From a virus (taxonomy: Duplodnaviria; Heunggongvirae; Uroviricota; Caudoviricetes; Schitoviridae): a DNA stretch of 64,000 nt. This document shows positions 1 through 33,113 of this stretch, piece by piece. Where the stretch lies: positions 14,677 to 78,676 of the IMG/VR virus record IMGVR_UViG_3300028490_000001, one strand, 5' to 3'. Position 1 is the first letter of the stretch. Each line of letters begins with the position of its first letter. The notes under the pieces are model-generated. The model had not been told where the DNA came from and searched no databases. It was given only the letters and a program-made list of their open reading frames with translations. The translations under genes were made by a program, and so were the position numbers.

Positions 1-1822
1 TTCCTATTGCCTGGTTAAATGACAACATTATTCCTGATGAGCTAGCATCCGCTTTTGTTCTGTAGACAATACTAAATGAGCCGTTATCTTTTCTTATGTT
101 TGATATTGCTTCAATAATCATAAGCTTGTTCCAAGGATTACCCTTGAACTTTATAGGGTGTGTACCTATTTTACCTTTTGCAAGTGCACGCATGAACCCC
201 ATACGCTTTTTGGCATCAACAGTAACTCCTTCTCCAAATAAAGCATTGTATCTTGATATAAGGTAGTCAATATCAGGGTCAAAACCTTCTTCTGTTATCT
301 GTCTCTCACTTAGTCCTTTTTCTCCACCTGTCTCATCATTTATTCCATGAATGATTTGATTCTTTAGATTTTTCCCTAGAGCGGTAGTAGTATCTATAAC
401 TACTGGTTTACCGTTTACCATGTTTCTAGCAAAGTGCTTATCCATTTGCTCGTTTAATACTGTAGATAGATATTCTAAACGAGTGGTTCTGTATAATTGA
501 GTTTCATGTGTAAATGCTTTTGGAGAACCATCTTCATTTATAAAATCATCTATATTCATTATGAGTTGAACCAGAGGGTTCTGTTTTGATATTGATTGCC
601 CTATTGAGCTCTTAAAGTTATCGGATGTAGTCTTTGGGCTCAACGCACCAAATATTTCATTCGCCTCTATATCAGAGAGACCCATCTTTGAATATAAGTT
701 TTTTAGTGTAGCCTCTGCACTGGTAGTACTTATGTCTCCAAGTTCATCTAGTATTTCTCTCATGTACTTGAGCATTGCTATTGAATTTTCGTTGAGGTAT
801 GACTCTTTCTCCTGTAGCTCCACCATTAGTGACATATTGTCTGCAGTGATGTTGTCTCCAGAGTTCGTAAAGCCAAGGTCTTTTACTTTCGGCTTACTGT
901 ATTCCTTGTTTACCTCAGTATGGTCAGTAAGTGGCAGCTTTACATTGGACGGAACCACTAATCTATTTACTGCAGATATACCATTTAATGTTTCAGATAA
1001 TGTATCAAAAACACTAATACTCTTTAGGTCTCCAGCTCTAAGGGCTTCAGAGATTGCAGCTCTAGATTTTTCATCCTTCTTTTGAGAGCCCTCAAGGAAT
1101 GCGTCTGTCACTATAGATATAGTCTTGAACCCGCCTAATGTTAATTCACCTTGCTTACTATAGTCTTTTAAATTAGACTTGTAGTATCCAGGGTTTATAA
1201 TATGGTCGTTCTCTGAGACTCTAACTAGTCCAGCATCGACAAGTCTCTGTATTGCATCTTCACCGAGTTTTTGGTATTTTGCATTATTCATTACTGCATC
1301 ATGGTGGTATTTGAAGCCTAAGTGCTCTGCAATTACTTTACCTATTGTCTGAGCAACTGGTGCAAAGTTTACCTTTCTTGACATGTCATCATTGAACAAC
1401 ACTCTTGATGCAGTTTCACCAGTGAGTCCTATGTTCTCCTGTATGTTTGCTTCATTTGTTATTGCCGCAATAATTTCATGCAGTGCAACACTTTTCTGCA
1501 GTATATCATTTCCTGCTTCTGCCTTTTCAAGGTCTGTTTTTGCTTCAGGAACACTAGCTACGATGAGGTTTGATTCTTTCGAGTTATCGACATTCTTTGA
1601 TATTTTTTTCCATGTTTCAGGATTAAACTTCTCTATAAACTTTAGTTTTGCTTCTGCTCCGACTGAATTACCAGCCTTATGAAGAAGGTTATATATGTCA
1701 GCATGTAATACTCTTGTTATGTCAAATGACATAGGTTTTTTTCTACCTTTGCCATTGTACGTTATAGGTCTTACTTTATCTCTCTTAGCATCAAAAGCAA
1801 TTGGTTTTAAACAGTTTCCCAT
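1..1822 (-). CDS. Partial (N-terminal >=607 aa) large protein with T7-like single-subunit RNA polymerase signatures; ORF starts at ATG 1822..1820 and runs off the window; possibly a virion-associated RNAP
   Basis: Manual minus-strand translation is open from 1822 to position 1 (not in the ORF track because it is open-ended). It contains 'LAKGKIGTHP' (cf. T7 RNAP 'LAKGKPIGKEG') followed about 50 aa later by 'DASSSGIMLSF' (cf. T7 motif A 'DGSCSGIQHFS'). Confidence 0.4.
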   Translation of the reverse strand, partial: MGNCLKPIAFDAKRDKVRPITYNGKGRKKPMSFDITRVLHADIYNLLHKAGNSVGAEAKLKFIEKFNPETWKKISKNVDNSKESNLIVASVPEAKTDLEKAEAGNDILQKSVALHEIIAAITNEANIQENIGLTGETASRVLFNDDMSRKVNFAPVAQTIGKVIAEHLGFKYHHDAVMNNAKYQKLGEDAIQRLVDAGLVRVSENDHIINPGYYKSNLKDYSKQGELTLGGFKTISIVTDAFLEGSQKKDEKSRAAISEALRAGDLKSISVFDTLSETLNGISAVNRLVVPSNVKLPLTDHTEVNKEYSKPKVKDLGFTNSGDNITADNMSLMVELQEKESYLNENSIAMLKYMREILDELGDISTTSAEATLKNLYSKMGLSDIEANEIFGALSPKTTSDNFKSSIGQSISKQNPLVQLIMNIDDFINEDGSPKAFTHETQLYRTTRLEYLSTVLNEQMDKHFARNMVNGKPVVIDTTTALGKNLKNQIIHGINDETGGEKGLSERQITEEGFDPDIDYLISRYNALFGEGVTVDAKKRMGFMRALAKGKIGTHPIKFKGNPWNKLMIIEAISNIRKDNGSFSIVYRTKADASSSGIMLSFNQAIG

Positions 1823-1825: not shown

Positions 1826-4800
1826 TTATCCTTCACATTTCTTATTCATAAAGTCTTCTAGAGACATTTCTTCTCCTAGAGTGTCATCTAGGGACTGAGT
1901 TTGCATACTCTCTTTTATTTCATTAACATTATAGCTCATTTCTTGCCCAAGAAAGCTAGGTTCAGCATTTTCTTTCGTGTCTTCTGTTGCCTCTTCCGTG
2001 GTATCAGTGGGTACATCATCGTTACTTTCAGTCGTATCATCCTCTACACTACTTGTTTCGATATTATCTTCGACTGGATTATTCTTTTCAAAATCTTCAG
2101 CAATAGGCAATTCAGTAATTAGAGATGCCCTTTGCTTAAGAAGGTCTGCTGTGTTAGAACCATCCACCTTTAGTTCTTCTTCAATCTTTGAAATCATACT
2201 TTTTATTTCTACAGAACTTTTGAAGAATGAATGTCCATCAAGGGCGTTTTCTATGTCACTTGATGAGTCTTTAGAAAATGAGTCTAGCCTCTTATTAAAT
2301 ACTTTAGCTTGGTTCTTTGTTATAAAATTTCTGTCAACAAGTGCCTGTATAGCTTCTCTTATTGAACCAACCTCTTCTGATGACGCTATATTCCCTTGTG
2401 ATATCAGCCTTGTAATCTTTTTGTAGTTATTGGCTTTTTCTTTTGGGTCCATAGAAAAAGATGCATCACTTACAACTTCGCTATCTGTTGCATACGGATT
2501 AATAGTAAGCTTACTTCTTGCCGAAGAAGCTCTATCGTTAATCACACTATTTGCTATCTTCTTGAGTCTTGATTTCTTAGGAAGCTCCTGAATCATCTTC
2601 TTTAGTGATGCATTAGAATACTTAGTCATCTTGTTGTATGCTTCTCTTGAGCTCTCTTTCCCTTTGCCGAATAGTGTCTTGATTAGCTCTCCAGGAACTT
2701 CTTTGAGCGTAGGATTAGCAGTAGCGTCATCCTTCATTGAATTGTCTGACATATCAACGCTGTCGTTGCTTCTAGAGCCAGAAATCCCTGCCTTTTTCCC
2801 GTCTGTTCTAGCCTTGTCAAAATATGATATATTTGAAGATACTATTTCAATATTTCTTTCATTTTCTTCATTTATTGAAGATACCCATCCTAGGGCACCA
2901 TTTTTTATACTGTCAAAGTTTTTACTCATAACATCGTTCGTAACCATAGTCGATAGGTTTTTAGACATAGAGGCTTTCCCTATAATAGATACAATTACTT
3001 CCATATCCTCACTTGAATCAATCGCTGCTCCTATGTCAGCACTCGTAGCATCATCCTCTAATCCAAGCTCTGCAATAAGTAAGTCAGATACTTTTTTTCT
3101 TTTTGACGCATTCTTGATTGCTTTGTTCTTTGCCTCCATGAATACTTCACTGCCCTCAACTGACTCTTTTGATAACAGGGCTTTCTTCCCTATTTCTATC
3201 TGTGCATTCAACTCTTCGTTGCCAGTTGCTTCTAATTGTTCCATATTCTCTGCATTCTGGATAGCTTCAGTGGTTCTAACTATTGACTCTCTATTGCCCT
3301 CGTTACCTTTGAGCTCTTGTGTGAATGCATCCCTAGCTAGTTTATAGTCATTATCAGACAGATTTTGTATCTCTCTAGTGTTTAGATTTTTTGCTTTATT
3401 TTCTTTCGCAGATATTCTTGCATTGTTCAATGCTTTTCCAGCTGCTGGAACAGCCTGTACTGAGGCAGAGACTGCAGAACCTGCTACTGTCATACCACCA
3501 CCAGCGAATCCACCAGTAATACCTTGTCTGAGGTTCTTCTCATTCATTGTCTTTAGTGCACGTTTCGCATTCTCTTTACTGAAGATGTCAGATATTGAAC
3601 CGTCTGTGTCCCTTTTCATTGTGTTGAATTGCTCTTCCATTGCCTCTGATGTTTCCTGAATAGTCTCACCAATCTGTGAACCAGCTACAGCTGCAACTCC
3701 AGAAGCAACCTTAGCCTTTATGCCCTTTCCTGTAAAAGTTTTACCTATCTTGTTTAATCCAAATAGCGTAAGTACTTTCTCTATGTATATAGTAGGAACA
3801 ATTGTGCCTATAGCTTGTGCAACTTCTGCATTAGTCATATCTCTATTGTTATTCTTTTTGAATGCATCCATCCGGTCATCTAGGCGTGTACCTGTAGTAA
3901 TCGCTATACCACCTGGAATGATAAGCTGCAACATCTCTCCTGCAGAGTCACCAATTGATTCCGGCACATTTTCAACTGTCTTCTTAACATATGTTAAGTA
4001 GTCTTCGTTGTCCCATGCCTCATTCGCTTCGTGCTCAGTCTTCTGCTTTCTGTCTCTAGCGAGCTTGTTTACACCAGCATATATGTCTGACGCTGTACTG
4101 CTGTCTGCAAATTCTTTTGAGGTCATCCCTGTATCTAGAAATTCAGAACCCGCTCTATCCTTATATGCTTTATCTGTTAGAGCTTTATTTTTAGCCATAT
4201 CCTCTTTGCTTTTTCCAAACAATGGACCAAGAGTGTCTTCTTGCTTGTTGTATAACCACTTCATAAAAGTATCTGTGCTGTCATCAAAATTTGCAAGTGT
4301 TTTGACTGCAGAGCCCTTTGCCATATCTACAACTTCTGCGAACTTACCTTCATATCCTTCTTTATCATGGTACTCTGAGAAGTCCAAATATTGCTCTTCT
4401 TCAGATTCATCTCTAATTTTCGATGGTGGTGTACCTTTCCACCCAAGAGCCTTGGCTCTTTCATCTTCGCTCATTGATTCCATTATTTTCTGCTCTAATA
4501 TACTCAGACCAGTATTATCTTTTTTTATATTTTCCGTTTTGGCATTAAACAGTGGCATACTATTTCCGTCATAGTATTCAGACGCACCACTACCTGTACC
4601 ACGTCTGAAGGCTGCAGATTCGCTTGAACCGTCATCGAAAGACTTTCTTGCCCCTATATTTCCTTCATTACCATGGAATATCTTCTCAGCATTTGCCGCA
4701 ACACCTATCGGTAGTTCCCAATTTGCATATAAGTCCTGCTCATCTATTCCAGTTTTCCCTGAAGCCCATCCATATTGCTTCTCTAAACCATTATTGTCAG

Positions 4801-5296
4801 TGACTATGGTTCCAGGAGTGTACCTCTCTTTTCCTCCGTACTTTGAAAACCCTATCTTTGTCATGTCACGGTCTTCTTTTCCGTGCCCCATATATAAATA
4901 TCCTGTATCGGTACTACTTTCTACGGCAATCTTTCTGCCATTTGAGTCCAATGTATATGGAGTGCCATCTGATTCTCTGTATATTCTCTGGTCGTACACA
5001 TCACTAAGCATTTGCTGTTGCTCTGCACCGGTAGCAGTGTTATATATTTTGTTTCTGTTTTGTACATCATGACCAGCAATGGTTGAGTAACCATCACTTT
5101 CACTATTGAGCTGGTCCAGGAATCCAGATGATACATCTCTATATCCATTGTTGTCCACTATAGCTTTCTTTTCTGCATATTTGCTTTCTACGCTGAGCTT
5201 TTTCTGCTCAGACAATGTTGGTACTGGAGCATATGAGCTCTCCAGTGTATTGTATTTTTGCTGCTCTGCAGCAAGCATATCATCAAACAACGCCAT
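1826..5296 (-). CDS. Large internal virion / ejection protein (gp16-like, 1156 aa) with a Gly/Ala-rich central region and an acidic C-terminal tail
   Basis: Largest ORF in the structural module. Low-complexity Gly/Ala segment and a C-terminal acidic stretch. Position after the tail and internal proteins is typical for podoviral core proteins. Confidence 0.4.
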   Translation of the reverse strand: MALFDDMLAAEQQKYNTLESSYAPVPTLSEQKKLSVESKYAEKKAIVDNNGYRDVSSGFLDQLNSESDGYSTIAGHDVQNRNKIYNTATGAEQQQMLSDVYDQRIYRESDGTPYTLDSNGRKIAVESSTDTGYLYMGHGKEDRDMTKIGFSKYGGKERYTPGTIVTDNNGLEKQYGWASGKTGIDEQDLYANWELPIGVAANAEKIFHGNEGNIGARKSFDDGSSESAAFRRGTGSGASEYYDGNSMPLFNAKTENIKKDNTGLSILEQKIMESMSEDERAKALGWKGTPPSKIRDESEEEQYLDFSEYHDKEGYEGKFAEVVDMAKGSAVKTLANFDDSTDTFMKWLYNKQEDTLGPLFGKSKEDMAKNKALTDKAYKDRAGSEFLDTGMTSKEFADSSTASDIYAGVNKLARDRKQKTEHEANEAWDNEDYLTYVKKTVENVPESIGDSAGEMLQLIIPGGIAITTGTRLDDRMDAFKKNNNRDMTNAEVAQAIGTIVPTIYIEKVLTLFGLNKIGKTFTGKGIKAKVASGVAAVAGSQIGETIQETSEAMEEQFNTMKRDTDGSISDIFSKENAKRALKTMNEKNLRQGITGGFAGGGMTVAGSAVSASVQAVPAAGKALNNARISAKENKAKNLNTREIQNLSDNDYKLARDAFTQELKGNEGNRESIVRTTEAIQNAENMEQLEATGNEELNAQIEIGKKALLSKESVEGSEVFMEAKNKAIKNASKRKKVSDLLIAELGLEDDATSADIGAAIDSSEDMEVIVSIIGKASMSKNLSTMVTNDVMSKNFDSIKNGALGWVSSINEENERNIEIVSSNISYFDKARTDGKKAGISGSRSNDSVDMSDNSMKDDATANPTLKEVPGELIKTLFGKGKESSREAYNKMTKYSNASLKKMIQELPKKSRLKKIANSVINDRASSARSKLTINPYATDSEVVSDASFSMDPKEKANNYKKITRLISQGNIASSEEVGSIREAIQALVDRNFITKNQAKVFNKRLDSFSKDSSSDIENALDGHSFFKSSVEIKSMISKIEEELKVDGSNTADLLKQRASLITELPIAEDFEKNNPVEDNIETSSVEDDTTESNDDVPTDTTEEATEDTKENAEPSFLGQEMSYNVNEIKESMQTQSLDDTLGEEMSLEDFMNKKCEG

Positions 5297-5305: not shown

Positions 5306-6898
5306 TTATTTTTTCTTTGTTTTATATTTTTTTATCCATCTTTTCAACGCACTTTCTAATTCTTTTGCAGAACCATCTATTCCCGGTCTATCATTCTCTC
5401 CAGGGAATGAATCTTCTGAGTCAAAAACTCCGCTTGCTTCTTCTGACTGGAAGAAGTTTAACAAGTCTTTGTCATCTACTTTCTTGAGATGTTTTTTATT
5501 CTCAGGTAGGTTTGCCCACTTGTTTACAGTTTCAAGTGCTGTAGATAGTTTTCTAGTATCGCCACCATCAAAGTTTCCATAATCATCATTTCCAGAAGAA
5601 TAGTATCCTTTTATTGTCGACACCGCTCCAGTGGTACTAAGGTCTGTATAATCTTTTGACCTTTTTCCACCACTGTTGTCATATGGGACATACTTCCCAC
5701 CCTTCATTCTGCCTTTTCCTGTAGCAACCAGTATCTTAACTTTTTGGGCTATGCTATCTTCGTCAGCCTGCTTCTTGTCTTTTTTCTTCTGCAGTGCATC
5801 TGTTTTCTTCTTTGCTGAATCAAGCATCTCTTTTTCATAGATATTGTTTGTCATCTCAGCGTCATATGCTCTTTTCAATTTAGCTTTTTTAGCCTTTGCC
5901 TCTAGCTTTAGGTTTTCTTTTATGTACTTAGCCTGCTTGCCAAGCCCTTTTGGGTTAGTGGCTGCAACTTTATTTATTCTTGATATCTCTTTTGAAAGCT
6001 CACTATCAATGTCATATACACTATTGTTATAGCTAGTTTCTATTGCTTTCGCCTTCTGAACAATGCTGCCTGAGTTAGGTTTTGCATTTGCTGCAGGTGA
6101 ACTTGCTTGCGCAACTACTTTTTCTAGTGGAGAACCACCACTCATGCGATTTATATTATCAACAGCTATGTTGTTGTTTTTTATCGTTGGTCCAGGTGTA
6201 TTCGTAGGCTTAGGATTAAACATTTCATATCCAGCGTCTTTTGAGCTTCTGTTCATGATTTCAGTCATTGTATCAGCACTTGTTGGTTCTGGCTGTTTAA
6301 ATATGTTTCCTCTACGAGCATCAACTCCTAGTTGCATCATGGCGTCTTCACCTACCTGAGCTGGTGTTCTCTGGGCATCACTGTACATCTTGTCTGCTAT
6401 TGTTTTCTCTAAGTTCCATTTTGAGAGACCATCGTCACCCTGCTCTGGTATCTTAAGGAAACGTTCTGCAGTTGGAATAGCTGGAGTGTTTGCTCCTCCA
6501 TATAACGCGGCTAAGCCTGCAGCACTGGTCTTTGCAGCAGCTCTAGCTCTTGATGCAGATGCTATGCTTCTAGCCTCTGCCCTTTGCTTAAATGCTTGAG
6601 CTGTTCTATATTTCTGGTTCTCGTAACTAGCGTCTGCTATTGCAGCAGCATTATATATTCCTGTACGCTCAGGAGTCTTTCCTGCTCTAATCTGTTCAAT
6701 TATGTTTGCCGTGTTCGCTGCACTTTTAGATTTTGCATTCTGGTCACTATTAGCAGTATGCTGCTTTAGAACACTTGATAGTGCGTCTTCCATCCCGCTG
6801 TTCCCATGTGCCATCATGGAGGATGCGAGTCTTGCTTCAGCTACACCTGCATTTGCATCCCATCTGGATGCAGTCCATTTTGGTAGTTTATTAGCCAT
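5306..6898 (-). CDS. Internal virion protein (530 aa, Ala/Lys-rich, low complexity)
   Basis: ORF track; composition and position between other core proteins. Confidence 0.35.
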   Translation of the reverse strand: MANKLPKWTASRWDANAGVAEARLASSMMAHGNSGMEDALSSVLKQHTANSDQNAKSKSAANTANIIEQIRAGKTPERTGIYNAAAIADASYENQKYRTAQAFKQRAEARSIASASRARAAAKTSAAGLAALYGGANTPAIPTAERFLKIPEQGDDGLSKWNLEKTIADKMYSDAQRTPAQVGEDAMMQLGVDARRGNIFKQPEPTSADTMTEIMNRSSKDAGYEMFNPKPTNTPGPTIKNNNIAVDNINRMSGGSPLEKVVAQASSPAANAKPNSGSIVQKAKAIETSYNNSVYDIDSELSKEISRINKVAATNPKGLGKQAKYIKENLKLEAKAKKAKLKRAYDAEMTNNIYEKEMLDSAKKKTDALQKKKDKKQADEDSIAQKVKILVATGKGRMKGGKYVPYDNSGGKRSKDYTDLSTTGAVSTIKGYYSSGNDDYGNFDGGDTRKLSTALETVNKWANLPENKKHLKKVDDKDLLNFFQSEEASGVFDSEDSFPGENDRPGIDGSAKELESALKRWIKKYKTKKK

Positions 6899-6901: not shown

Positions 6902-7558
6902 TTATCCTTTTATTTTTTTCTTATTCGCAGGAACCTGTCTTATTGGTTGTGCTGTCTTAGCAAAAGCAGAGCTCATTGTTCCACCATTAACTGGCACAAC
7001 TGGAGCTACCGTATTGGCTTGCTTTCCAGTATTGGCACCATTTGCTCCTGATGAGTATTCGCTTGGTATATCTACGATATTACTCTGTGTTCCATCTGCA
7101 GCAACTATTCCAGAACCAACACCTTCGTATTGGCTACTTATAGCTGCCCTATTCCCAGTACCGCCTGCATTTAAGTCTGCAAACATTGAACGATATGCTG
7201 AGTTTTGGTTGATTTTTCTATTGTAGCCATCTCTCCTCATCGCTAAATCTCTCCAGTAGTTATCTTGAGAAAATTTAAACTTATCTCTTGAGAGCTCATA
7301 CATATCTTCTGCATTCTGTGTTTCATTCCATCCATTAAATGCACTAAGTGCACCTAGACCGTAATCAAGGATACCCATATCTTTAATCATTGAGCCATCT
7401 GCTCCTGCATGTGAGCTGCTCATCCAGTTCATTCCAAGGTTTTTCTTAGCCCATCCATCGCTGCTAGAGCCGACGTTTAATGGAATCTTGTTGTCTGACA
7501 TTATATCTTCCCAGCTCCCATTTCCTCCGCCAAAGTCTTTCATATATTCATAGCTCAT
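6902..7558 (-). CDS. Virion protein (218 aa, Gly/Asn-rich)
   Basis: ORF track; tightly packed with neighbouring structural genes. Confidence 0.3.
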   Translation of the reverse strand: MSYEYMKDFGGGNGSWEDIMSDNKIPLNVGSSSDGWAKKNLGMNWMSSSHAGADGSMIKDMGILDYGLGALSAFNGWNETQNAEDMYELSRDKFKFSQDNYWRDLAMRRDGYNRKINQNSAYRSMFADLNAGGTGNRAAISSQYEGVGSGIVAADGTQSNIVDIPSEYSSGANGANTGKQANTVAPVVPVNGGTMSSAFAKTAQPIRQVPANKKKIKG

Positions 7559-7578: not shown

Positions 7579-9747
7579 TTATGTTTCTCTCATTAGTCTA
7601 TTGACATCATCACGCCCATTGACACCATCTACAAGTGCCAAATCAAGGTTTAATGTTCTGTTTATAAACTGTTCTTCTGTTTCCGGATTGACTAATGTTG
7701 AAATAAATCCAAGTATAGTTTCAGGACTCTCTAGTGCAATTGTACCAGCTTCTTCCATAAGAGTCTTCATTTCTTCATCATTGGCTCTTACCTTCTTCTC
7801 AAATTCGGCAACCTCATCTTTTAATTCTTCAGCTTTCTTTCTTACTTGAGACATATTGTATGAGTTCACAGCATCCATTGTCTTTATTGCTAGGCCTGCT
7901 AGAACACTTGGGTCTCCAAGTTGTGAGAAATCTTGTGTATATACAGAGTATATAAGCTGAAATACTGCTAGTAGCCATGCTGCATCAATTATGTCGGAGA
8001 GAAAGAGTCCGATGACTTTGAACACCAGCATCTTTATCACCGTGGTAATTGCCGCCGTGGCTAGGGAGTAGAGCGTCAGTGACTGACCACCAGTCCACCA
8101 TGCAACAACGACTGCCACAACGAAGAATACAACCTTGAATATACCAGTCTGATACCACTTTAGTTTTATCCTCTTTACAGAATAAACACAAAGTATTACG
8201 CTCTCTCGCAAGAACCTCTCTCTTCTAAATAGCGGTATATGCTTCGACGCCTTGTACTCAAGTGGGAACAGGACTGCTTCAAGACCCTTATCGTTTGAGC
8301 TTATGTCATCGAACGGGTCATCACCTGATGGATTGTCAGGTTCCCCGTTCGTGTTCTCAATCTCTACTGTAATATATGTGTCTTCATTTACGCCAAGTAT
8401 ATTGTGTTTTATATTTACAACAACATGGTATTTTGATTTCACATTGTACATCAACGGTCCGAGTGAGGAGAGTAAGCCATCACTATTTATCTGAAAAGAA
8501 CCAACGTCTGGTCCAGATATTGAATATGTATAACTTAATCCTCCAGGAGCGTCCTTGTGCATGTCTCGTACATAAGTGGTTCCGTTTGGTACAGTTGTGC
8601 TGTCTTTTACAGTATCCGTACCACCCTTCTGTCCAACAGATGCAAATACTGCTCTGTAGTCTCCACGGGTATCAGTAAACCCATGCAGAGAGCCATATCC
8701 CCATATTCTTATCTCACCATATGTTGTTGCTGTTAGTTGAACTTGTATCTCTAATAGAGATGGCGTATTTTTACCAACAGAGGCTATGTTTGTTGCAGAC
8801 TTTATAACTTGAATTATAGGGTCCCCTACTCCATCGCCTCTGTTTGCTGTTGAACCGTGGTAATATTTATGATTAGCTTTAGCTTTTCTCCACTTAGGTG
8901 CACCAACGTCAAACTCATCCTTTACGACACCACGTCTTATTATGTGTGACCATTCCTTCCATCCACATAATACTGAGAAGTTTCCAGACACAAGCTCCAT
9001 TATGTAGTTTTGGTATGGGAAATCCTTCTTAATCTTAGCATCTACACCATTGAATGTTACTTTTGGGTAAGTCTCTGCACAGGTATGATATAGAGCGATT
9101 GTATTTGTTTCACCAAGCTCAGAACCAATAGCACCTACAGTAGTATATACATCTGATATATCACTAACGTTTTCTCTCTGCTCGTTCAAATCCTTGACCA
9201 TTTGCTCTCTATATGCAGCCAAGGTAGGATATTCTGATTGAAGCTCCTCAGATAGCTCCCAGGCCTTCTTATAGGGCTTAAAGTCTCTATCGGTAAGTGC
9301 TGGAATATCTTCTGGCTCAAGAACGGCAGTATGGAGCGATTCCAGCTCCATATTAAATGACTTCATGAATTTATCTACGTGTTTTCTTCTAGCGTCTGTC
9401 TTTGGCATGTCAAAATACCCATTTGTGCCTGCAGCTACTGAGTAGTCATCCTTTACAGGACATGCTCCATAGAATGTATGGTCATCTATTGTACCGTGGT
9501 TATAGTCTGCTCCATGTGAGCCATTTACCAAGTATGGTCTGAATTCATTAAATCTATTTATTGGGTCTTTGTAGATGCTTCTCATGGTAGCTGTATTGCC
9601 AGACTTTATATCTTCTACCATGAAGTCTGCTATATCTATGTCTGCAGCAGCAGAGAAGGTCGCTGCCTCCCCTATATACTTATCCTTGTGGTCTCTCTTA
9701 GCGAGTATAGTCTGTAGAGATACAGACTTTACATATTCATATGCCAT
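7579..9747 (-). CDS. Large virion structural protein (722 aa) with an internal hydrophobic (TM-like) segment; tail tube/nozzle or ejection protein candidate
   Basis: ORF track; hydrophobic stretch 'VVFFVVAVVVAWW...LAVFQLIY'; position downstream of the MCP block. Confidence 0.35.
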   Translation of the reverse strand: MAYEYVKSVSLQTILAKRDHKDKYIGEAATFSAAADIDIADFMVEDIKSGNTATMRSIYKDPINRFNEFRPYLVNGSHGADYNHGTIDDHTFYGACPVKDDYSVAAGTNGYFDMPKTDARRKHVDKFMKSFNMELESLHTAVLEPEDIPALTDRDFKPYKKAWELSEELQSEYPTLAAYREQMVKDLNEQRENVSDISDVYTTVGAIGSELGETNTIALYHTCAETYPKVTFNGVDAKIKKDFPYQNYIMELVSGNFSVLCGWKEWSHIIRRGVVKDEFDVGAPKWRKAKANHKYYHGSTANRGDGVGDPIIQVIKSATNIASVGKNTPSLLEIQVQLTATTYGEIRIWGYGSLHGFTDTRGDYRAVFASVGQKGGTDTVKDSTTVPNGTTYVRDMHKDAPGGLSYTYSISGPDVGSFQINSDGLLSSLGPLMYNVKSKYHVVVNIKHNILGVNEDTYITVEIENTNGEPDNPSGDDPFDDISSNDKGLEAVLFPLEYKASKHIPLFRRERFLRESVILCVYSVKRIKLKWYQTGIFKVVFFVVAVVVAWWTGGQSLTLYSLATAAITTVIKMLVFKVIGLFLSDIIDAAWLLAVFQLIYSVYTQDFSQLGDPSVLAGLAIKTMDAVNSYNMSQVRKKAEELKDEVAEFEKKVRANDEEMKTLMEEAGTIALESPETILGFISTLVNPETEEQFINRTLNLDLALVDGVNGRDDVNRLMRET

Positions 9748-12028: not shown

Positions 12029-13285
12029 TTATACTTCAGCTACAACTTTGTAACAAGAAATCCACTCAGGACGCTGTGCAAGGAAACCGTAGTACCATTT
12101 GATTGAATAGAATCCAGTTTCACCGTATGGGTCAAGAGAGTTCACGTTGTTGCTTGGAGCTCTGTGATTGATTTTCCACTTAACTTTCTTACCAGAAGTC
12201 TGGAATCCAATTTGTGTAAATGAACCAGAACCAACAGTCAACATTGGGAAGATATCATATTTTCCACCAGTTTCTCTGTATCCAGCATTCGCTGCAGTAG
12301 CATCTGCTCCAGCACCTTCCCAGTGTAACATCTCAGGTACAAGGATGAATCTAAACTGGTCAATAGCACCAATCTCACCTTTAGCAAGTGTACCAGCAGC
12401 AGCATAGTGTCTAGCTTCAACAAATGCTTTCTCTCCGTGGAGGTCTTTCATTCTTTTAAGTGTAGGAATCATTTCAGAACCAACATAGATATATCTAGCA
12501 TTATCAATAGTAAGTGTATCAATAAGTCTAGACCCAGTGATTATCTTAGTATTTTTAGGTGCTTTGTTATCATCAAGTGTGATACCTGTCTTCATTAGTC
12601 CTTCATAAGTAGGAACAGAAATAGTAGCCGTAGACTCACCTGTAACTGTAGCGTTTGAAGTTGCGTCTCCACCAAATCTAATTACACCAGCTGCATTTAA
12701 AAGGTCAACCTGAAGTTGTGCTTCAGTGATTTCATTTGCGCCTCTAGTAGACTCACGTCTAATGTGCATTTGTAATTGTGGGTCAGTATCAAAGTCAATT
12801 GATTCTTGGTTGTATTCATCAAAGAATCCAAACTTAGCCATAGTACCTTCGATTTCAACACGCTTGAATCCGACACGGTTCACTCTACCACCATGCTCAG
12901 TAAGAGTAGGAAGTTTACCAACGATTGTACCTATATCTTTAGAAGAACCATAAAGGTTTCCATCTTGAATAGTTGCACCAGTTGCATCAATACCCTGGTC
13001 ATTGATATTTCTATCGTCCAAAAGAGGAAGGTATAAATATTTCTTAATTTTCTTACCCATATGTTTAGGCATAGAAGTTGTATCTGCTAATTGACCGAAG
13101 AACTGTTCTTTAGCAATTTCGATAAGAGCTTTTTTGTCGTAGTAGTATGTATTGATTTGAGCACCAATAGAACTATTTGTACCATCACCATAGATTCTTT
13201 CTGAATCGTTAGTTTCTGTGTTAAATGCACCTGATGCTGCGATAGCAGCGAGGTACGTTGCTGTAGATAATTTAATCGTTTTCAT
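12029..13285 (-). CDS. Major capsid protein (418 aa)
   Basis: Size, position directly downstream of an acidic scaffold-like gene and the portal, and a strong hairpin after the stop. No motif-level proof. Confidence 0.5.
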   Translation of the reverse strand: MKTIKLSTATYLAAIAASGAFNTETNDSERIYGDGTNSSIGAQINTYYYDKKALIEIAKEQFFGQLADTTSMPKHMGKKIKKYLYLPLLDDRNINDQGIDATGATIQDGNLYGSSKDIGTIVGKLPTLTEHGGRVNRVGFKRVEIEGTMAKFGFFDEYNQESIDFDTDPQLQMHIRRESTRGANEITEAQLQVDLLNAAGVIRFGGDATSNATVTGESTATISVPTYEGLMKTGITLDDNKAPKNTKIITGSRLIDTLTIDNARYIYVGSEMIPTLKRMKDLHGEKAFVEARHYAAAGTLAKGEIGAIDQFRFILVPEMLHWEGAGADATAANAGYRETGGKYDIFPMLTVGSGSFTQIGFQTSGKKVKWKINHRAPSNNVNSLDPYGETGFYSIKWYYGFLAQRPEWISCYKVVAEV

Positions 13286-14896: not shown

Positions 14897-14919
14897 TTAT
14901 AGCACACTTCTAGCTTAAA
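14897..14919 (-). promoter_or_regulatory. Sigma70-like promoter (extended -10 TGTGCTATAAT) upstream of the 117-aa gene
   Basis: The reverse complement reads 'TTAAGCTAGAAGTGTGCTATAATTCAGCAT' followed by RBS 'AAGGAACGACAATG'. Confidence 0.3.
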
Positions 14920-17245
14920 GACGTCTGTTGACCAAAGAATCTTTCATATTCTCTTCTGGAGTGTCAGTGCCTGGCAACAGATTATCTACCGATTTTTGGT
15001 AGTGATTGTTGGCAGTAAAGACCTTTGGTTTAAGCTTTCCCGATTTTCCCTCTCCTCCTGAAGTTGGAGTTGGTGCATGTGAACCAATGAGCGGGTTATC
15101 TCTGTCTAATGCAGCAGCAACCTGCTTATCATCTATAGCATTCACTGCTCTCTGGTCTTCTGCTTCTTTTGCTCTATTGTGGTCAGCACCTTTAGCTATT
15201 TCACTTCTCATTTCATTTGTGCCATCCTTCTTCTGCACATAGTCAAGGTCTGACATGTCTGCAGTAGAGTTAAGAGCTTTTGCCTTAGCTTGTTCTGTTT
15301 CTGCCTTAGCGTTCTTAAGTAATGTATCAGCTTGATTTTCTGTACCTTTAGCTCTTTCATTTTGAACTTGCGCTTCAAGTAAATCTTTCTGGAGTTGTTT
15401 TATTTCCTCTTCCATTGGGTCTGGCTCTGGCTTGTATTCTTCAATTCTTTTTGCTAGGTCAGGCATCTTCTTAAGTCTGGCTATCTTTCCAAGTATTACT
15501 GACTGAAGACCTGGGTCCATGGATGGTCCAATTGTCTGAAGCATAAATCCAAGGTCCTGAGCCTGCTCTTGGTCGACTTCTGGTGTTGAGATTGTTAATC
15601 TAACATCAAAGTTACCAGCAAGTGCGTCTCTTGATATAGTTACTTCCTCTTCGTCTGTTATTCTAATGACCTCTTCATCATCAAGGTTTACAGCATTCAT
15701 AGACATTATTTTTCTTCCTGCTTCCACCACACCAAAAGACAGTCTTCTAAGAATTCCCATTTCTCTCTTTGATGTTGCATCAGAGGCAGTCTTTACTGCT
15801 GCTGCAGTAGAACCAAGTGCATTACCACCTTGTCCTGACGTGAATGCTCTTACACCTGTAAGTGCTTCTGCACCTTGTTCGTGAAACTGAATCATTTCTA
15901 GTGCTGAACGAGGTATCTCAGGGAATGTAGCCATAAAGAATGCCTTAGATGGGTCAACGTCTGGATTAAATATGTAATCTTTCCCTTGTTCAAATCTAAG
16001 CTTCTGTGCTGGGTCTAGTGCGTTCGCGGATATACCTTGTTGTGCATTCGCTGATTTACCCATAAGGTCTATCATTCCTCTACTTATTGCCCCAATAATG
16101 TCTTGATGTTCCTCAATAAGGACAGCATCTGGTTCACCACCATATACATCATTTCTTTTTGGCAAGTAAACTACTTTAATAAAAGGAGGTTTGTTATCTG
16201 GAAATGGATTCTTTTCTAATCTTATCATCGTAGAACCAACATACGTTGCAACTATTGGTACAAGCAGACCATCTTTGTTTATGTCCCAGTTGCCCCAATA
16301 TTCTATAGCTGTTAGCTTCTTTCTTGGGTCATCCTCGTAATTAAATACCTTTTCCTCATACTCTTCCTGACTTAGTGTCTCATCTGAGTCAGATATTATT
16401 GACTCAACATTTGAGTATTTTGAATCTAGTGCAAGTTCTGCTTTTGATGTTTGGAATTGATATGCAATAAGACCTGCTTTATCTAGGTCTCCACCACATG
16501 TAGGGTCTATTAATACTTTGTCATAGTCACACACTTCAATGGTTGGTCTATTATATAAAGTAACTAGCTCCTTAACCATCTCTGTTTTACCAGATGGGTC
16601 AGGTACAAGTTGAAGCATCCCTTGTGCTTGAGCTTGTAGTTCTTGGAAGTCACCAAGTAGCATTCCTCCCTGCTGTACAGCTTGTTGTGCTTGTCTGAGT
16701 CTATTTGCCACTTCTGGTGGAAGCTGCTGAATCATCACTGGTCTTTCGACCTCTTGCTCTTCTTCTTCGAACTCCCAACCTGTTCTAAGGAATACAACTC
16801 CCTCATCTACAGCAGTACGAACATATCTATCTATAAAATCGACTCTATCTATGTCCTTGTTAAACTGCTTGTTTAGGATTATCCCGTTATCTCTCGCAGC
16901 ATCTGTATCCAGGTGTGTAGTTGGAGTGACATCAAACATGTCATCAGAAGACAGCAGTGATTCGCTTAATGATGAATATCTCCATTCATTTTGCTTTCTA
17001 ACTAGCTTTGGTTGAAATTTACTTCTACCCTTCCCAGTATCAACCTTGATATTACCGTCTCTTACGCTTAACCATTTTTTTATGTTTCCAACGTGAACTG
17101 CAAACTCAGGTTCTGCATCACGTATCTCTTGTTTTAGTTTAGCAACCGAAGGAGGGTTCTTCCATTCTGGTTGAATCTCCTTTTCTATTCTGCGACCATT
17201 GTCGTCATAATTTACTTCGACTCTGTTGTCATCAGTGTTATCCAT
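14915..17245 (-). CDS. Portal protein (776 aa)
   Basis: Size and position upstream of scaffold and MCP. No motif proof. Confidence 0.45.
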   Translation of the reverse strand: MDNTDDNRVEVNYDDNGRRIEKEIQPEWKNPPSVAKLKQEIRDAEPEFAVHVGNIKKWLSVRDGNIKVDTGKGRSKFQPKLVRKQNEWRYSSLSESLLSSDDMFDVTPTTHLDTDAARDNGIILNKQFNKDIDRVDFIDRYVRTAVDEGVVFLRTGWEFEEEEQEVERPVMIQQLPPEVANRLRQAQQAVQQGGMLLGDFQELQAQAQGMLQLVPDPSGKTEMVKELVTLYNRPTIEVCDYDKVLIDPTCGGDLDKAGLIAYQFQTSKAELALDSKYSNVESIISDSDETLSQEEYEEKVFNYEDDPRKKLTAIEYWGNWDINKDGLLVPIVATYVGSTMIRLEKNPFPDNKPPFIKVVYLPKRNDVYGGEPDAVLIEEHQDIIGAISRGMIDLMGKSANAQQGISANALDPAQKLRFEQGKDYIFNPDVDPSKAFFMATFPEIPRSALEMIQFHEQGAEALTGVRAFTSGQGGNALGSTAAAVKTASDATSKREMGILRRLSFGVVEAGRKIMSMNAVNLDDEEVIRITDEEEVTISRDALAGNFDVRLTISTPEVDQEQAQDLGFMLQTIGPSMDPGLQSVILGKIARLKKMPDLAKRIEEYKPEPDPMEEEIKQLQKDLLEAQVQNERAKGTENQADTLLKNAKAETEQAKAKALNSTADMSDLDYVQKKDGTNEMRSEIAKGADHNRAKEAEDQRAVNAIDDKQVAAALDRDNPLIGSHAPTPTSGGEGKSGKLKPKVFTANNHYQKSVDNLLPGTDTPEENMKDSLVNRRL

Positions 17246-19798: not shown

Positions 19799-20157
19799 AT
19801 AGAAGGAAGAGAGCCTAGAACAATGTCACTATCGAAGAAGTGAGCAATTATGCTTTCACCACTAGATAGCATTAGCGTAAAGGACAATAGTGAGAATATT
19901 AGTCCCACCACGAAAGCCCTTAGCAACTCAAGATGCATTCTTTTTATACATCTCTTACCAGAAGCTTCAACTTGAGCCTTCAGGTTCATAAAGTCGTAAT
20001 ATGCCATTGTCATAGACACAAACCCACCTACGGAGGCAGTAATTATGTATGCTGGGTCATCAAAGATAACCATGCTGCTAAACAATATAGAACTAACTGC
20101 AGCTTTTTTTGTTGCTGCCGCTGTTGCTGTTGCTACTACGATATCTGTCTTATCCAT
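19714..20157 (-). CDS. Membrane protein (147 aa, about 4 TM), holin/antiholin candidate
   Basis: Hydrophobic helices; part of the lysis cassette. Confidence 0.35.
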   Translation of the reverse strand: MDKTDIVVATATAAATKKAAVSSILFSSMVIFDDPAYIITASVGGFVSMTMAYYDFMNLKAQVEASGKRCIKRMHLELLRAFVVGLIFSLLSFTLMLSSGESIIAHFFDSDIVLGSLPSIWMVLTLIIAINSDGIYMRVKNLIGGKK

Positions 20158-20638
20158 TTTTTTTCCTTACATGCTTCATTATATCATTAAATAATGCAGA
20201 AGGTGAATACTTGCATCCTTTTGATAAAAATGAATACGTTTTTGTTTTTCTTATTATGTTTGCGCATACCTCTGAACAGAACACTTTATGCTCTGCCTGT
20301 ATGCAGATTGGCGTAACGCTTGTTATCGCACCAGTGTAGTCATATTTCATTCCCATATACTTCTCTATCTCATCCAGAACTATACATTCTTCATCCTTTG
20401 ACAGGTTGAGGTCTATATAGTCCCATGATTCAGGTCTCGGTTTGATTTTTCTATATTGAGAGGAGTTGGTTCGGGGAGAAACAGAGAACCACTTGTTGCC
20501 GATTACGATTTCCACATGAGAATACTTCCCTACTGAAAGACACGCTATTAGCCAATCAAGCCATAGTCTTCTTATGTAATCAAAGTATTTTTCATCTGCT
20601 CTTCTTTTCTGAAAAGCGACATAGAATGCAAGTCGCAA
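20150..20638 (-). CDS. Putative permuted papain-like (His...Cys) peptidase/hydrolase (162 aa)
   Basis: 'YSHVEIVIG' (His) precedes 'CSEVCANII' (Cys), reminiscent of permuted NlpC/P60-like cysteine peptidases. Location in the lysis region. Confidence 0.25.
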   Translation of the reverse strand: MRLAFYVAFQKRRADEKYFDYIRRLWLDWLIACLSVGKYSHVEIVIGNKWFSVSPRTNSSQYRKIKPRPESWDYIDLNLSKDEECIVLDEIEKYMGMKYDYTGAITSVTPICIQAEHKVFCSEVCANIIRKTKTYSFLSKGCKYSPSALFNDIMKHVRKKNG

Positions 20639-22257: not shown

Positions 22258-24546
22258 CTATACGTTTAAGGGACAATCTTCTTGGTTCACATAGTTTAGA
22301 CCAGCGGTGTTGTCTTTACCAGTTTTTGAGATTTCATCTTGTTCTGCTTTCGTAGGATTCGATAAATCATCACACCCACTGAACATTTCAGAAACAATAA
22401 TATCTGGACTAGTTGTATCTATCTTCTCTATACAGTAAAGGTGGCTACATCCCATGAATATCTGTTCTACTGACACAACGTTGGTTGTATCTAGTCCAAT
22501 TACACTTATTAGGTTCTTGTAGCTATGGAATGCTCCTTTAAAGCTTGTTACGCTTGGTGAACTTATGATTGCAATATTAGAAATCTTTGATTCATCTTCT
22601 GCTCTAGCATCAGGGAATATATCTATTGTGTGTCCAGGTTGTGTCTGAACTATATATTCATTGTATCCGGTTCCAGTTGTTACATCCAGAAGTTGCCCAT
22701 TAAGTCCGTCTCTGTATTCAGGTTTAGCTGATGATGTGACTATCATTTTAAATGTGTTGTCTACTGGTTTACATCCAAGCATCTCACCCATTGCAGTAGT
22801 AGATATTTTTTTATCTCCTATATATGCTGCTTTAGCTAAGTCTTTTCCTATTCTTATACACATGCTTACTGGTGGAGTCCACGTACAGCAATCTTCACCG
22901 TCTGGAATATCAGTAACCCAAGCTATACCTGGAGTTGCTTCTATTGCTGTTCTTTCTGTAGCGTTAGGTCTACATAGAGCAGGTGTGTTGCTAAACATCC
23001 CAGTTGTATTGGTAGCTGATGTTGTGTTTACACCTTTCATACATTTTAGACCAGAACAATAAATCCAAGTGTTACTAAAATTAGTAGCCTTGCTAGTATC
23101 AAGAGCTGGAAAAGATGTCAACTTACCACAACTGTCCCAAGTCTCTACAAATTCGGTACCTTTACTTGTATCCAATGAAGGGAAAGAAGCTAACTTTCCA
23201 CAATGCCTCCAGGCAGCCTCAAAAAAAGTTCCCTCTGAAGTATCTATTAAAGGAAAAGAAGATAGTCCGCCACAACTAGCCCAGGCATAACTAAAATTAG
23301 TACCTTTACTTGTATCTATTAGAGGAAATGATGTCACTGATGAACAACTGTGCCAAGTACTACTAAAATTAGTTCCTGAACTAGTATCTAACAAAGGAAA
23401 AGAAGTCAATGTTGAACAACTAAACCAAGCCCTATAAAAGTTAGTTCCTTTTGAGGTATCTATTATGGGAAATGATATCAATTTTTCACAATTATACCAA
23501 GCTTCACTAAAATCAGTAACTAAACCAAATGCTGTGGAAGATGCTATAAATTCAGTCAGCTTAATACAACCCTTGAATGTACGATTTAACGAAGTCAGCT
23601 CTTCGGTTATAATTTCTATCTTGGTAATCTTATCGTCATTATTGGAAATCATAAAGGTAGAAATTGCATCCATTGAAGTAAGCTGATAGGTTCCGTCACT
23701 ATTATCGGTAACGGTTATAGAACCGCCGGTTACGCCAGCTAAGCCAGGTAATGCTGATGAGGTTACTTTTATATCTAGTTTTAATTGAGTACAACAATCC
23801 ATACCACTTCTAACGTCTGATACCCAATCTATACCAGGGGTAGCCTCTATTTGAGCACGCTCCGTAGCATTTGGTCTACAAATAGTTGTGTTCTCAAACA
23901 TTGATGTAGTATCTGTTGCAGATGTCGTATTTACAGCACCAAGACAATCTAGTGATGAACAGTCCCTCCATGTATGTCTAAAGCTTGTACCACTCTGTGT
24001 GCTTATCACAGGGAAGTGCTTTAGTTGCGTACAGTTGTTCCATGTCGCATTAAAGCTTGTTCCATTAGAGAAGTCGAGACCTGGGAATGAGGTTAGTGCA
24101 TAACACTCTAGCCATGTACCATTAAAGTTCGTTCCTGCAGTCGTTGTAAGCGATGGAAAAGATTTAAGCTTGTTACATCCACCCCACGCATAGCTGAAGT
24201 CGGTTCCGCTTGATGTATCAATCTGCGGAAACGAAACTATCTTAGATGAGTATCCCCATGCATATGAAAAATTCACAACATTAGCAAATGCGGTAGATGG
24301 TGCAATGAATTCTGTCATGTTTATGAAGCTCTTGAAGGTGTCCTCAAGTGATGTAAGTGCCTCATCTATTACTTCTACTTTTGTTATCGCATCTTTTTTA
24401 CTTGTTGCTATAGTAAAGTGTGTAATCCCTTCTGTAGATGTGAGTTGATAAGTACCATCCTGGTTATTGTTTATTGTTATTTCACCACCACTGACTGACG
24501 CTATCTGAGGCCAGTCACTGGAGGTTATTTTTAGTTCAAAAGACAT
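22258..24546 (-). CDS. Receptor-binding / tail fibre protein with tandemly duplicated BspA-type leucine-rich-repeat modules (762 aa)
   Basis: About 22-aa repeats 'IDTS.GTNFS.AW..C..L.SFP' occur at least 12 times. Two roughly 260-aa modules (aa 1-260 and 265-545) are clearly paralogous, and each ends 'CRPNATER..IEATPGI.WV.D...G.DCC'. Confidence 0.55.
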   Translation of the reverse strand: MSFELKITSSDWPQIASVSGGEITINNNQDGTYQLTSTEGITHFTIATSKKDAITKVEVIDEALTSLEDTFKSFINMTEFIAPSTAFANVVNFSYAWGYSSKIVSFPQIDTSSGTDFSYAWGGCNKLKSFPSLTTTAGTNFNGTWLECYALTSFPGLDFSNGTSFNATWNNCTQLKHFPVISTQSGTSFRHTWRDCSSLDCLGAVNTTSATDTTSMFENTTICRPNATERAQIEATPGIDWVSDVRSGMDCCTQLKLDIKVTSSALPGLAGVTGGSITVTDNSDGTYQLTSMDAISTFMISNNDDKITKIEIITEELTSLNRTFKGCIKLTEFIASSTAFGLVTDFSEAWYNCEKLISFPIIDTSKGTNFYRAWFSCSTLTSFPLLDTSSGTNFSSTWHSCSSVTSFPLIDTSKGTNFSYAWASCGGLSSFPLIDTSEGTFFEAAWRHCGKLASFPSLDTSKGTEFVETWDSCGKLTSFPALDTSKATNFSNTWIYCSGLKCMKGVNTTSATNTTGMFSNTPALCRPNATERTAIEATPGIAWVTDIPDGEDCCTWTPPVSMCIRIGKDLAKAAYIGDKKISTTAMGEMLGCKPVDNTFKMIVTSSAKPEYRDGLNGQLLDVTTGTGYNEYIVQTQPGHTIDIFPDARAEDESKISNIAIISSPSVTSFKGAFHSYKNLISVIGLDTTNVVSVEQIFMGCSHLYCIEKIDTTSPDIIVSEMFSGCDDLSNPTKAEQDEISKTGKDNTAGLNYVNQEDCPLNV

Positions 24547-29287: not shown

Positions 29288-29698
29288 CTACGGCATTATC
29301 GGTTTTGTCATATCCGTACATAAGGTAGGACCTTCACATAGGACTATCTCATTACAACATATTGTTTCCATACAGTTCAGCTTCCAGCTTCTGGATTCAC
29401 ATGGTCTATTACCAAGGAATGCCTCAACTATCGCTCTGTCCTTCATAGTTAGTAAACATGGACATGCTATATTCAGAGTTATTAGTTCTAGCTCTAGCCA
29501 CAACTCTCTACTTATATTGCTCCTGTTTAGCTTACCCGCAACAAATAGATTCATGAGTGTAAGATAATCTTGGTTCGCCTCACATCTAAAGTTGTCCGGT
29601 TGATATATATTGAACTGAGGGACTCTACCCCAATATCTGTCTATAAACTTCTTCTCTTCATTCTGGTCTAATCCCCAACTAGGTGTAAAAGTTGCCAT
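29288..29698 (-). CDS. Cys-rich hypothetical protein (136 aa)
   Basis: ORF track; multiple Cys in the C-terminal half. Confidence 0.25.
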   Translation of the reverse strand: MATFTPSWGLDQNEEKKFIDRYWGRVPQFNIYQPDNFRCEANQDYLTLMNLFVAGKLNRSNISRELWLELELITLNIACPCLLTMKDRAIVEAFLGNRPCESRSWKLNCMETICCNEIVLCEGPTLCTDMTKPIMP

Positions 29699-32119: not shown

Positions 32120-32839
32120 TTACTCCTCTTCTACGATAACAGCCTCTTCAAATAATATTTTTGATTCTGCTATTTCAATACTTGTGTTGGTTCCAGCTTC
32201 TATACCTATTTGTTGCTGTCTGGCTAGTCTTTGCATTTCACTTCTTAACGATGTGATTTCATCAACACCTTTTACTCCTACATCTAGCTCAATCTTCGTT
32301 ATCTCATTAGGTGCAGTATATTTAAGCACGCTTTCTGCTGCAGCAATCCTATCTTGGTCTCTCACTGCATGATACATTCTGTCATACTGTACGTTCAGTG
32401 CATCCTGGAACATTGGCGCATTCAGTATCTTTGACGGCATAAGTGCTTGCTCTGCAAGCTTCTGTACTAGCTCCCCAGTTTTATATGCAGTTACAAATGG
32501 TGATATTTTTTTACCACGAATATCATCCTCTGGTAATCCTTCTGCTAGCCACTTCTCCATTAATCTGCCATATCTATCAGGGAACGTCAGGTGGTAGGCG
32601 TCTATATCTGTGTTGCTTAGCAACTTGTAGGCAACATATTTAACTGCAGACATATAATCCTTTATGCTGTACTGTCCTGTTTTGAGCACTGCACTAAGTG
32701 TTAAGAAATTCTGCTTGTAGTGTTCTGCGAAATCTTCGCCCTCATCCTCTTCAAGCTGATTAAACGAATCCACTATGGACTGAGTTATCAGACTCTGGCT
32801 ATGTCTAGGCGCTATAGCCTTTAGTTCTTCTAGTGTCAT
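32120..32839 (-). CDS. Putative terminase small subunit (239 aa)
   Basis: Placement immediately upstream of terL in the same orientation. No motif-level evidence. Confidence 0.3.
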   Translation of the reverse strand: MTLEELKAIAPRHSQSLITQSIVDSFNQLEEDEGEDFAEHYKQNFLTLSAVLKTGQYSIKDYMSAVKYVAYKLLSNTDIDAYHLTFPDRYGRLMEKWLAEGLPEDDIRGKKISPFVTAYKTGELVQKLAEQALMPSKILNAPMFQDALNVQYDRMYHAVRDQDRIAAAESVLKYTAPNEITKIELDVGVKGVDEITSLRSEMQRLARQQQIGIEAGTNTSIEIAESKILFEEAVIVEEE

Positions 32840-32912
32840 TTCATTATCTCCTTGTATATTCTAATTTGTTTAGCATATTTTCTCTCATCCTCTTCATTCT
32901 GTTCGGCAACTG

Positions 32913-33113
32913 TCATACTATCTCAACCTCAGCATCAAGACTCAACATTCCAACTTTGTGCAGGTTCTTGTAATCCTCTTCAGTCTTAAACGACTGGCAA
33001 TACACAGATGTTCTGTACTCGTCACTCCCTATAAATATAGGCTCTCCTACAATAACTTTACCACCACTCTTAACAACAACTCTCGTTCCTGGTGCACAAT
33101 CTCTAGCTTTCAT
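32913..33113 (-). CDS. Small hypothetical protein (66 aa), first gene of the late module
   Basis: ORF track. Confidence 0.2.
   Translation of the reverse strand: MKARDCAPGTRVVVKSGGKVIVGEPIFIGSDEYRTSVYCQSFKTEEDYKNLHKVGMLSLDAEVEIV

Follow-up and report, generated by a model that had tools for sequence, protein, structure and literature searches.

Which polymerase is encoded by the gene that runs off the start of this window, and why does its product carry a lone cysteine within a few residues of its N-terminus? The window is a 64,000-nucleotide stretch of a Schitoviridae genome (IMG/VR record IMGVR_UViG_3300028490_000001, positions 14,677 to 78,676), and the gene is a minus-strand open reading frame (ORF) that opens with an ATG at 1822-1820, reads for 607 codons and extends past the window start. 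A sequence-only reading had picked out this ORF by its motif A, DASSSGIMLSF, and had taken it for a second, T7-sized single-subunit RNA polymerase (ssRNAP) whose placement resembled that of the packaged polymerase of phage N4. The ORF and its motif were as described. Our analysis, by profiles, a fold model and synteny, shows that the complete 2340-amino-acid (aa) protein is the RNAP domain plus C-terminal domain (CTD) of an N4-type virion RNA polymerase (vRNAP) from a divergent schitovirus. The gene departs from the definition of that family twice, being made as two chains and not being strictly free of cysteine. To the explanation as a whole, that an N4-type vRNAP is made as two polypeptides whose junction cysteines most likely serve an inter-chain disulfide, we assign a probability of about 0.85.

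We completed the gene through an exact-protein look-up of the co-oriented 1156-aa ORF that precedes it, which led to the 89.5 kb contig k141_733695 of ENA ERZ27262695. The completed gene (L002:13080-20102) has its ATG 3 nt past the TAA of the 1156-aa ORF. The match to motif A stands far above chance because none of D592, S596 and G597 varies among 55 divergent homologues (17-47% identity). The completed protein also contains motif B, RDMAKAMTMVTNYQAG, with the spacing R680-x3-K684-x7-Y692, and motif C, MIHDS, with D952, bearing out the earlier identification of an ssRNAP; it has in addition a conserved AIHGIDAA and an HExxH motif (HEITH, aa 1249-1253). Across the 55 homologues R448, D592, R680, K684, Y692, H897 and D900 never vary and H951 and D952 hardly do, and motifs B and C lie 260 residues apart, compared with 273 in N4. 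The second sequence cited for a T7-type enzyme, LAKGK, did not hold up. It lies 45 residues ahead of the motif A aspartate, where the corresponding gap in T7 is about 69 residues, and its position is an 'x' in the consensus of the wider family; this resemblance is probably due to chance.

The family of the polymerase emerged only from deep profiles. The 607-aa fragment alone had no matches in Pfam, PHROGs, the PDB (phmmer) or a word index of 5.8 billion proteins, and a phage tblastn search and an IMG/VR scan with it were also empty. Neither the full 2340-aa protein nor a 3-sequence profile matched the PDB, no Pfam RNA polymerase family was matched by the fragment or the full protein, and single-sequence phmmer and BLAST searches miss the N4 RNAP domain, the pairwise identity being too low. 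A word-index search returned 2 homologues only, each preceded by a 1200-1330-aa ORF, and HMMER, run exhaustively with an aa 1-1050 profile, yielded 90 cluster representatives. A local hidden Markov model built from 60 RNAP-domain segments aligned with residues 1362-1703 of N4 gp50 (E 1.6e-18), with TxxGR (R1421), motif A (D1556) and motif B (R1663/K1667/Y1675) in register. When a 55-sequence profile of RNAP domain plus CTD was run against all of the PDB, the only matches were N4 vRNAP entries (best 11fw_A, E 3.2e-31; also 11gp, 9pnq and 9pnr), colinear across the RNAP motifs, the HExxH and the end of the CTD. The last 140 residues of the 2340-aa protein match phrog_2206, 'virion RNA polymerase' (E 4e-18), and BLASTP aligned residues 1963-2303 with the C-terminus of the vRNAP of Pectobacterium phage CB4 (E 9e-12).

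The fold agreed. An AlphaFold2 (AF2) model from 3 sequences only had been unusable (predicted local distance difference test score, pLDDT, 45.8), and one from a deeper alignment reached a pLDDT of 90.7 and a predicted template modelling score of 0.91. Foldseek ranks 1-8 were all N4 mini-vRNAP or N4 vRNAP (E 3e-12 to 1e-10, prob 1.00; TM about 0.4 across about 1100 columns), with the yeast mitochondrial, T7 and human mitochondrial RNAPs behind them. The protein consists of an ssRNAP domain (aa 1 to about 1045), a variable linker and a CTD made up of a C1 subdomain with the HExxH and a large helical C2. The same order of RNAP domain, HExxH-bearing C1 and C2 is found in N4 gp50 (PDB 2PO4, 3C2P, 9PNQ/9PNR, 11FW), which also has its catalytic motifs in register with ours and its gene at the end of the late operon. 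N4 gp50 differs in being one 3500-aa Cys-free chain rather than pieces of 1156 and 2340 aa with one junction cysteine each, and the target's motifs A and C are more T7-like than N4's. With T7 and mitochondrial RNAPs the target shares the right-hand ssRNAP fold and the catalytic motifs, but it is about three times larger, has a non-catalytic CTD and lies in a virion operon. Residue offsets relative to N4 at four motifs are 964-996, which places residue 1 of the 2340-aa protein level with roughly residue 1000 of N4. The RNAP domain of the N4 cryo-EM structure begins at residue 1007, after a low-complexity linker between the N-terminal domain (NTD) and the RNAP domain at 907-1006 (PMC13434306). 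The target thus begins at the start of the mini-vRNAP, or N4 RNAP domain.

Where, then, is the NTD? On sequence evidence it is the 1156-aa protein, which had been labelled an internal virion protein. Using phmmer, this protein matched fused NTD-RNAP proteins over their N-terminal 50-260(-550) residues (P0078, E 1.5e-23; P0073, 7e-21; P0071, 2e-19; AltAD45 ORF127, 1.6e-5; also P0076 and P0068), and jackhmmer iteration from it reached residues 131-697, the NTD, of the CB4 vRNAP, with no shuffled decoy admitted in any round. BLASTP of the 1156-aa protein against the CB4 vRNAP and gp28 of Alteromonas phage vB_AmeP_PT11-V19 gave no significant match, and the homology surfaced only via the fused intermediates. 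Judged by sequence, the vRNAP is split at the end of its low-complexity NTD/RNAP linker, and the pieces sum to 3496 aa (1156 + 2340), compared with 3500 aa for N4 gp50. A last word-index search with an alignment of the 1156-aa ORF added one protein, P0093, whose only cysteine is its final residue.

Gene order leads to the same assignment. The operon runs portal, gp57-like, major head protein, gp55/54/53-like, two small or medium ORFs, the 1156-aa ORF and the target, the order found from gp59 down to gp50 in CB4 and N4, where the last gene is the vRNAP (3500-3700 aa). The portal is 44% identical to Schitoviridae portals, which places the phage next to that family. The gene is indeed co-oriented with the virion and ejection-protein genes and closes their operon, as the sequence-only reading had it, and the suggested N4-like packaging strategy was right insofar as the protein is homologous to the injected N4 polymerase. 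At 2340 aa it is not T7-sized, and it does not merely resemble the N4 arrangement but is an N4-type vRNAP. Nor is a second polymerase unusual, as had been supposed: several phage RNAPs encoded by two or three genes, one of them injected, are a hallmark of Schitoviridae.

The cysteines are distributed in a striking way. Both N4 gp50 and the CB4 vRNAP have none, as is already known for the family; in vRNAPs cysteine makes up 0.00075% of residues, compared with 0.865% in proteomes, and its absence from ejection proteins is generally read as disulfide avoidance (PMC11445570). Other ORFs of the window average 0.83% cysteine, a background at which the probability of two or fewer in 3496 aa is about 1e-10. 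Each piece here has exactly one, and the two face each other across the cut: the upstream protein ends FMNKKC1154EG before its stop, and the downstream protein begins (M)GNCLKPIAFDAK, that is, MGNC4. Cys4 does not vary among 55-56 homologues, a conservation equal to that of the catalytic residues, and lies within residues 1-10, which are disordered in the AF2 model and so put Cys4 on a flexible tail.

The pattern is the same in some 90 homologues and at each of three domain boundaries. Among complete RNAP+CTD proteins, each of the 34 has a cysteine at residues 3-7, with 2 internal cysteines in 76,956 residues, and RNAP-only pieces (1011-1326 aa) have one at each end (9/9). Of nine pieces with a fused NTD, eight have one within 0-3 residues of the C-terminus; the exception, P0059, seems not to be split and has no cysteine, as is also true of the apparently unsplit relatives P0063 and P0085. 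We read eight junctions on both sides (L002-L005, two in L007, L008 and AltAD45-P1), and every one has a cysteine on each side of the cut. Cuts fall at the NTD/RNAP border, right after the RNAP domain, or about 150-220 residues past the HExxH, positions that in the N4 structure correspond to the borders between NTD and RNAP, RNAP and C1, and C1 and C2. The outer ends of the enzyme, where the NTD naturally starts and the CTD naturally stops, never have a cysteine, and the flanking sequences share no motif besides the cysteine itself. As far as the searchable literature shows, this rule is unreported.

The split recurs in other phages. At the window junction both ORFs are in one frame (GGA TAA TTA ATG), with a Shine-Dalgarno (SD)-like sequence in the last codons of the upstream gene; an SD-like sequence and an ATG are present at most of the other junctions read. 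Three further loci (18-50% identity) share the split, with an overlapping TGATG and a different frame in L003 and a 12-nt spacer in L004, and 57 of 66 N-termini have A, S, G, P or T at the second position, as at genuine translation starts. Among cultured phages, the Alteromonas phages PT11-V19 (gp28 + gp29) and vB_AmeP-R22Y have the same division into NTD and RNAP+CTD, with junction cysteines and one additional phage RNAP gene. Their CTD aligns with the target end to end (E 1e-68) and their RNAP domain weakly (E 6e-8), at only about 25% identity. In R22Y, which was placed in Schitoviridae, the 2083-aa protein was called the vRNAP and the upstream gene hypothetical, and the split and the cysteine pair go unmentioned (PMC11705849). 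AltAD45-P1 also has a split vRNAP with a single cysteine per piece at the cut (SKHCKQ-stop in ORF127, MTICTNP in ORF126), but the cut comes after the RNAP domain (NTD+RNAP / CTD) instead of before it. In the AltAD45 phages re-sequencing verified the stop codon, and SDS-PAGE of virions showed both polypeptides (PMC3821669). RefSeq enters this vRNAP (L009, 10624-22348) as a misc_feature, 'potential frameshift', with no coding sequence (CDS), and as a result both pieces are absent from protein databases.

A counter-example is Shigella phage pSb-1 (L010, NC_023589, 30194-40982), where the annotation divides the vRNAP among three CDS, none with a cysteine at a junction. This split probably reflects frameshifts from errors in the record, not biology, and is a likely negative control for the cysteine rule. 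In the same record RNAP2 and SSB are each split in two as well.

What would paired cysteines do? Their most likely role is an inter-chain disulfide. By analogy with N4 (PMC13434306), the vRNAP pieces would be packaged in the capsid and ejected after the gp52-like and gp51-like proteins, whereupon the NTD would act as an anchor at the inner membrane and the RNAP domain would transcribe the early genes. The cysteine pattern suggests that a disulfide, formed in the released virion, joins the C-terminal tail of one piece to the N-terminal tail of the next; it would make the chain continuous again, so that it can be threaded N-to-C through the tail, and reduction in the cytoplasm would then free RNAP-CTD from the membrane-bound NTD. 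That the pieces of two- and three-gene ejected polymerases are stitched head to tail by terminal-cysteine disulfides, threaded and then reduced seems to us somewhat better than an even bet. Reduction would release the polymerase from its membrane anchor and, in lineages cut after the RNAP domain, from its autoinhibitory CTD. The capsids of Q-beta and PP7, which are assembled in the cytoplasm, can acquire inter-subunit disulfides after release, a precedent that makes the chemistry plausible.

Several points weigh against the explanation as a whole. Because capsids assemble in the reducing cytoplasm, oxidation would have to wait for release or be catalysed; with several vRNAP copies in one capsid, pieces might pair wrongly; and three-way splits would need extra non-covalent specificity to be joined in the right order. 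The gp51-like and gp52-like labels in the window are based on position and absence of cysteine alone, and a repeat scan of 32800-35700 found no convincing repeated N4-style hairpin promoter, although the early region may lie elsewhere. At the window junction, where a single TAA separates two ORFs in one frame, the sequence alone is compatible with read-through.

An independent T7-sized paralogue that only imitates the N4 strategy would suit the motifs, since DASSSG and IHDS are nearer to motifs A and C of T7 (DGSCSG and HDS) than to those of N4 (DGVTNG and FDG), and Foldseek also finds T7 RNAP structures (E 3.5e-9). It does not suit the rest: the gene encodes 2340 aa with no Pfam RNA polymerase match, the PDB profile returns N4 vRNAP only and includes the non-catalytic CTD, N4 comes first by fold, and the gene order is that of Schitoviridae. 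Gene length and CTD homology have already refuted this reading. We also think it very unlikely that the split is unreal, a sequencing or assembly error or a read-through that yields one 3496-aa chain, as has been proposed for split vRNAPs elsewhere (PMC10654107). Only a TAA and one codon separate the in-frame window ORFs, and the pSb-1 record illustrates that artefactual splits occur; yet that likely artefact is the one without junction cysteines, three further loci share the split, one of them across two frames, most junctions have the SD-like sequence and the ATG, most N-termini have the small second residue of a real start, and in AD45 a re-sequenced stop goes with two virion bands (PMC3821669). 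Programmed bypassing of the T4 gene 60 type, in which the ribosome would hop from the upstream to the downstream cysteine codon and make one fused chain, has the attraction that TGT/TGC take-off and landing codons flank every junction, 24-33 nt apart at four NTD/RNAP junctions, and that it would also account for cysteine being restricted to junctions. We regard it as just as improbable as an unreal split: the stop abuts the upstream cysteine codon at only one of eight junctions, with 1-4 sense codons between them elsewhere, bypassing would make the conserved ATG, SD and small second residues unnecessary, and AD45 virions hold two separate polypeptides.

If the pieces are real, the one with a cysteine might still not be injected, as the AD45 authors argued on the grounds that cysteine bars passage through the tail or periplasm; both AD45 polypeptides are nonetheless virion components (PMC3821669). 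A single cysteine at the junction in every piece would be unexpected had the Cys-free constraint been lost, and internal cysteine stands at 0.003% against the 0.83% background. The CTD is also retained, and Kazmierczak in 2002 reportedly found it needed for encapsidation in N4. We therefore see little chance that this account is right, hardly more than for an artefact or bypassing. A possibility to be taken more seriously, although still unlikely, is that the pieces are packaged and associate non-covalently, with the terminal cysteines serving joint metal coordination, attachment to another virion component or thiol sensing. This would agree with the reducing cytoplasm, which disfavours disulfides during assembly, and with the lack of any flanking motif beyond the cysteine. 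It agrees less well with cysteines that are always paired across the cut and never at the natural outer ends of NTD and CTD, with two thiols on short flexible tails, too few for a typical zinc site, or with an otherwise Cys-free ejection operon, read as disulfide avoidance (PMC11445570). We thus favour the inter-chain disulfide. Other readings of the junction were tried and rejected. Stop-codon reassignment was ruled out (the codon in question is TAA, other genes terminate normally and there is no sign of a suppressor tRNA), as were a split intein or trans-splicing (0-4 residues follow the upstream cysteine and 2-6 precede the downstream one, with no Pfam domains) and a lipobox (no signal peptide).

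Features of the window, with positions, strand and the basis for each assignment
Feature	Position	Strand	Basis or remark
Codons 1-607 of the gene for the 2340-aa RNAP+CTD piece of the split vRNAP	1..1822	-	ORF, completed gene, profile, AF2/Foldseek
Motif A DASSSGIMLSF, aa 592-602, catalytic D592	17..49	-	aligns with N4 D1556
LAKGK, aa 547-551	170..184	-	unconserved except in the three closest homologues
YRTTR, counterpart of T/DxxGR, R448 invariant	479..493	-	aligns with N4 TRVGR, R1421
Cys4 codon, sole cysteine of the 2340-aa protein	1811..1813	-	sequence
Separate gene for vRNAP NTD + linker, 1156 aa, stop TAA 1826-1828	1826..5296	-	phmmer/jackhmmer
SD-like AAGGA, 6 nt ahead of the ATG, within the last codons of the upstream gene	1829..1833	-	sequence
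Acidic low-complexity tail, aa about 1060-1156 (last ~95 residues), counterpart of the N4 NTD-RNAP linker	1829..2119	-	composition
Cys1154 codon, sole cysteine of the 1156-aa NTD protein, 2 residues from the C-terminus	1835..1837	-	sequence
530-aa protein at the N4 gp51 position (periplasmic tunnel ejection protein), no Cys	5306..6898	-	synteny only
218-aa protein at the N4 gp52 position (outer-membrane ejection protein), no Cys	6902..7558	-	synteny only
Virion protein, gp53-like	7579..9747	-	phrog_2220
Major head protein, gp56-like	12029..13285	-	phrog_1357, E 1.4e-127
Portal protein, gp59-like	14915..17245	-	PF23899, E 1.4e-116; 44% identity to Schitoviridae portals
Putative single-chain N4 RNAPII homologue, 749 aa	35631..37880	+	phrog_414, E 8.5e-13; weak colinear gp15/gp16 matches

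Among the neighbouring genes, the 530-aa protein at the gp51 position has no profile match in Pfam or PHROGs. The ORF called a clear T7-like RNAP in the sequence-only reading, which placed it at 35757-37880, begins at 35631; its RNAP signal is weak, with no Pfam match. Residues 338-365 of this 749-aa protein match the C-terminal TxxGR region of N4 gp15 (RNAP1) and residues 645-684 match motifs of N4 gp16 (RNAP2). On this weak sequence evidence it resembles the two-subunit N4 RNAPII fused into one chain.

Two late-operon proteins are rich in cysteine, in contrast to the Cys-free ejection proteins: one of 762 aa with 26 cysteines (22258-24546, minus strand) and one of 136 aa with 9 (29288-29698, minus strand). 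Both have PHROG matches of unknown function only and no thiol-oxidase-like annotation. A 162-aa ORF in the structural/late region (20150-20638, minus strand) matches phrog_1128, 'enoyl-CoA hydratase/carnithine racemase-like' (E 4e-27), a gene of auxiliary-metabolism type that is unexpected at that place. ARAGORN reports a tRNA-like gene at 45451-45526 (plus strand) with a two-base anticodon, '(ga)'. Several vRNAP homologues carry a ~200-300-aa insertion between the RNAP domain and the CTD with DEDDh-exonuclease-like motifs, such as FAYDTETLG ... AYNAGFD or FDVETNG ... YNAKFD ... HGAEYD: P0003 (L004:4190-12031, aa about 1180-1370), P0005, P0006, P0007, P0009, P0015, P0018, P0026, P0029 and P0031. 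The insertion had no Pfam match at E 0.001, and the window protein is without it.

As first described, the finding is an ordinary one, the hallmark vRNAP of an N4-like phage. Prior literature has discussed the absence of cysteine (PMC11445570) and has treated split vRNAPs as errors or read-through (PMC10654107) or as not injected (PMC3821669). Pipelines that demand more than 2500 aa of a vRNAP discard this whole clade (90 cluster representatives), and the two closest homologues of the target carry no annotation. The disulfide reading is directly testable in cultured phages, namely AltAD45-P1 to P4, PT11-V19 and R22Y. If true, it would supply natural genetic evidence bearing on a question still open in N4 biology: covalent N-to-C continuity would be required for delivery of the polymerase, supporting the 'beads on a string' model of ejection, and infection would include a redox-triggered release step.

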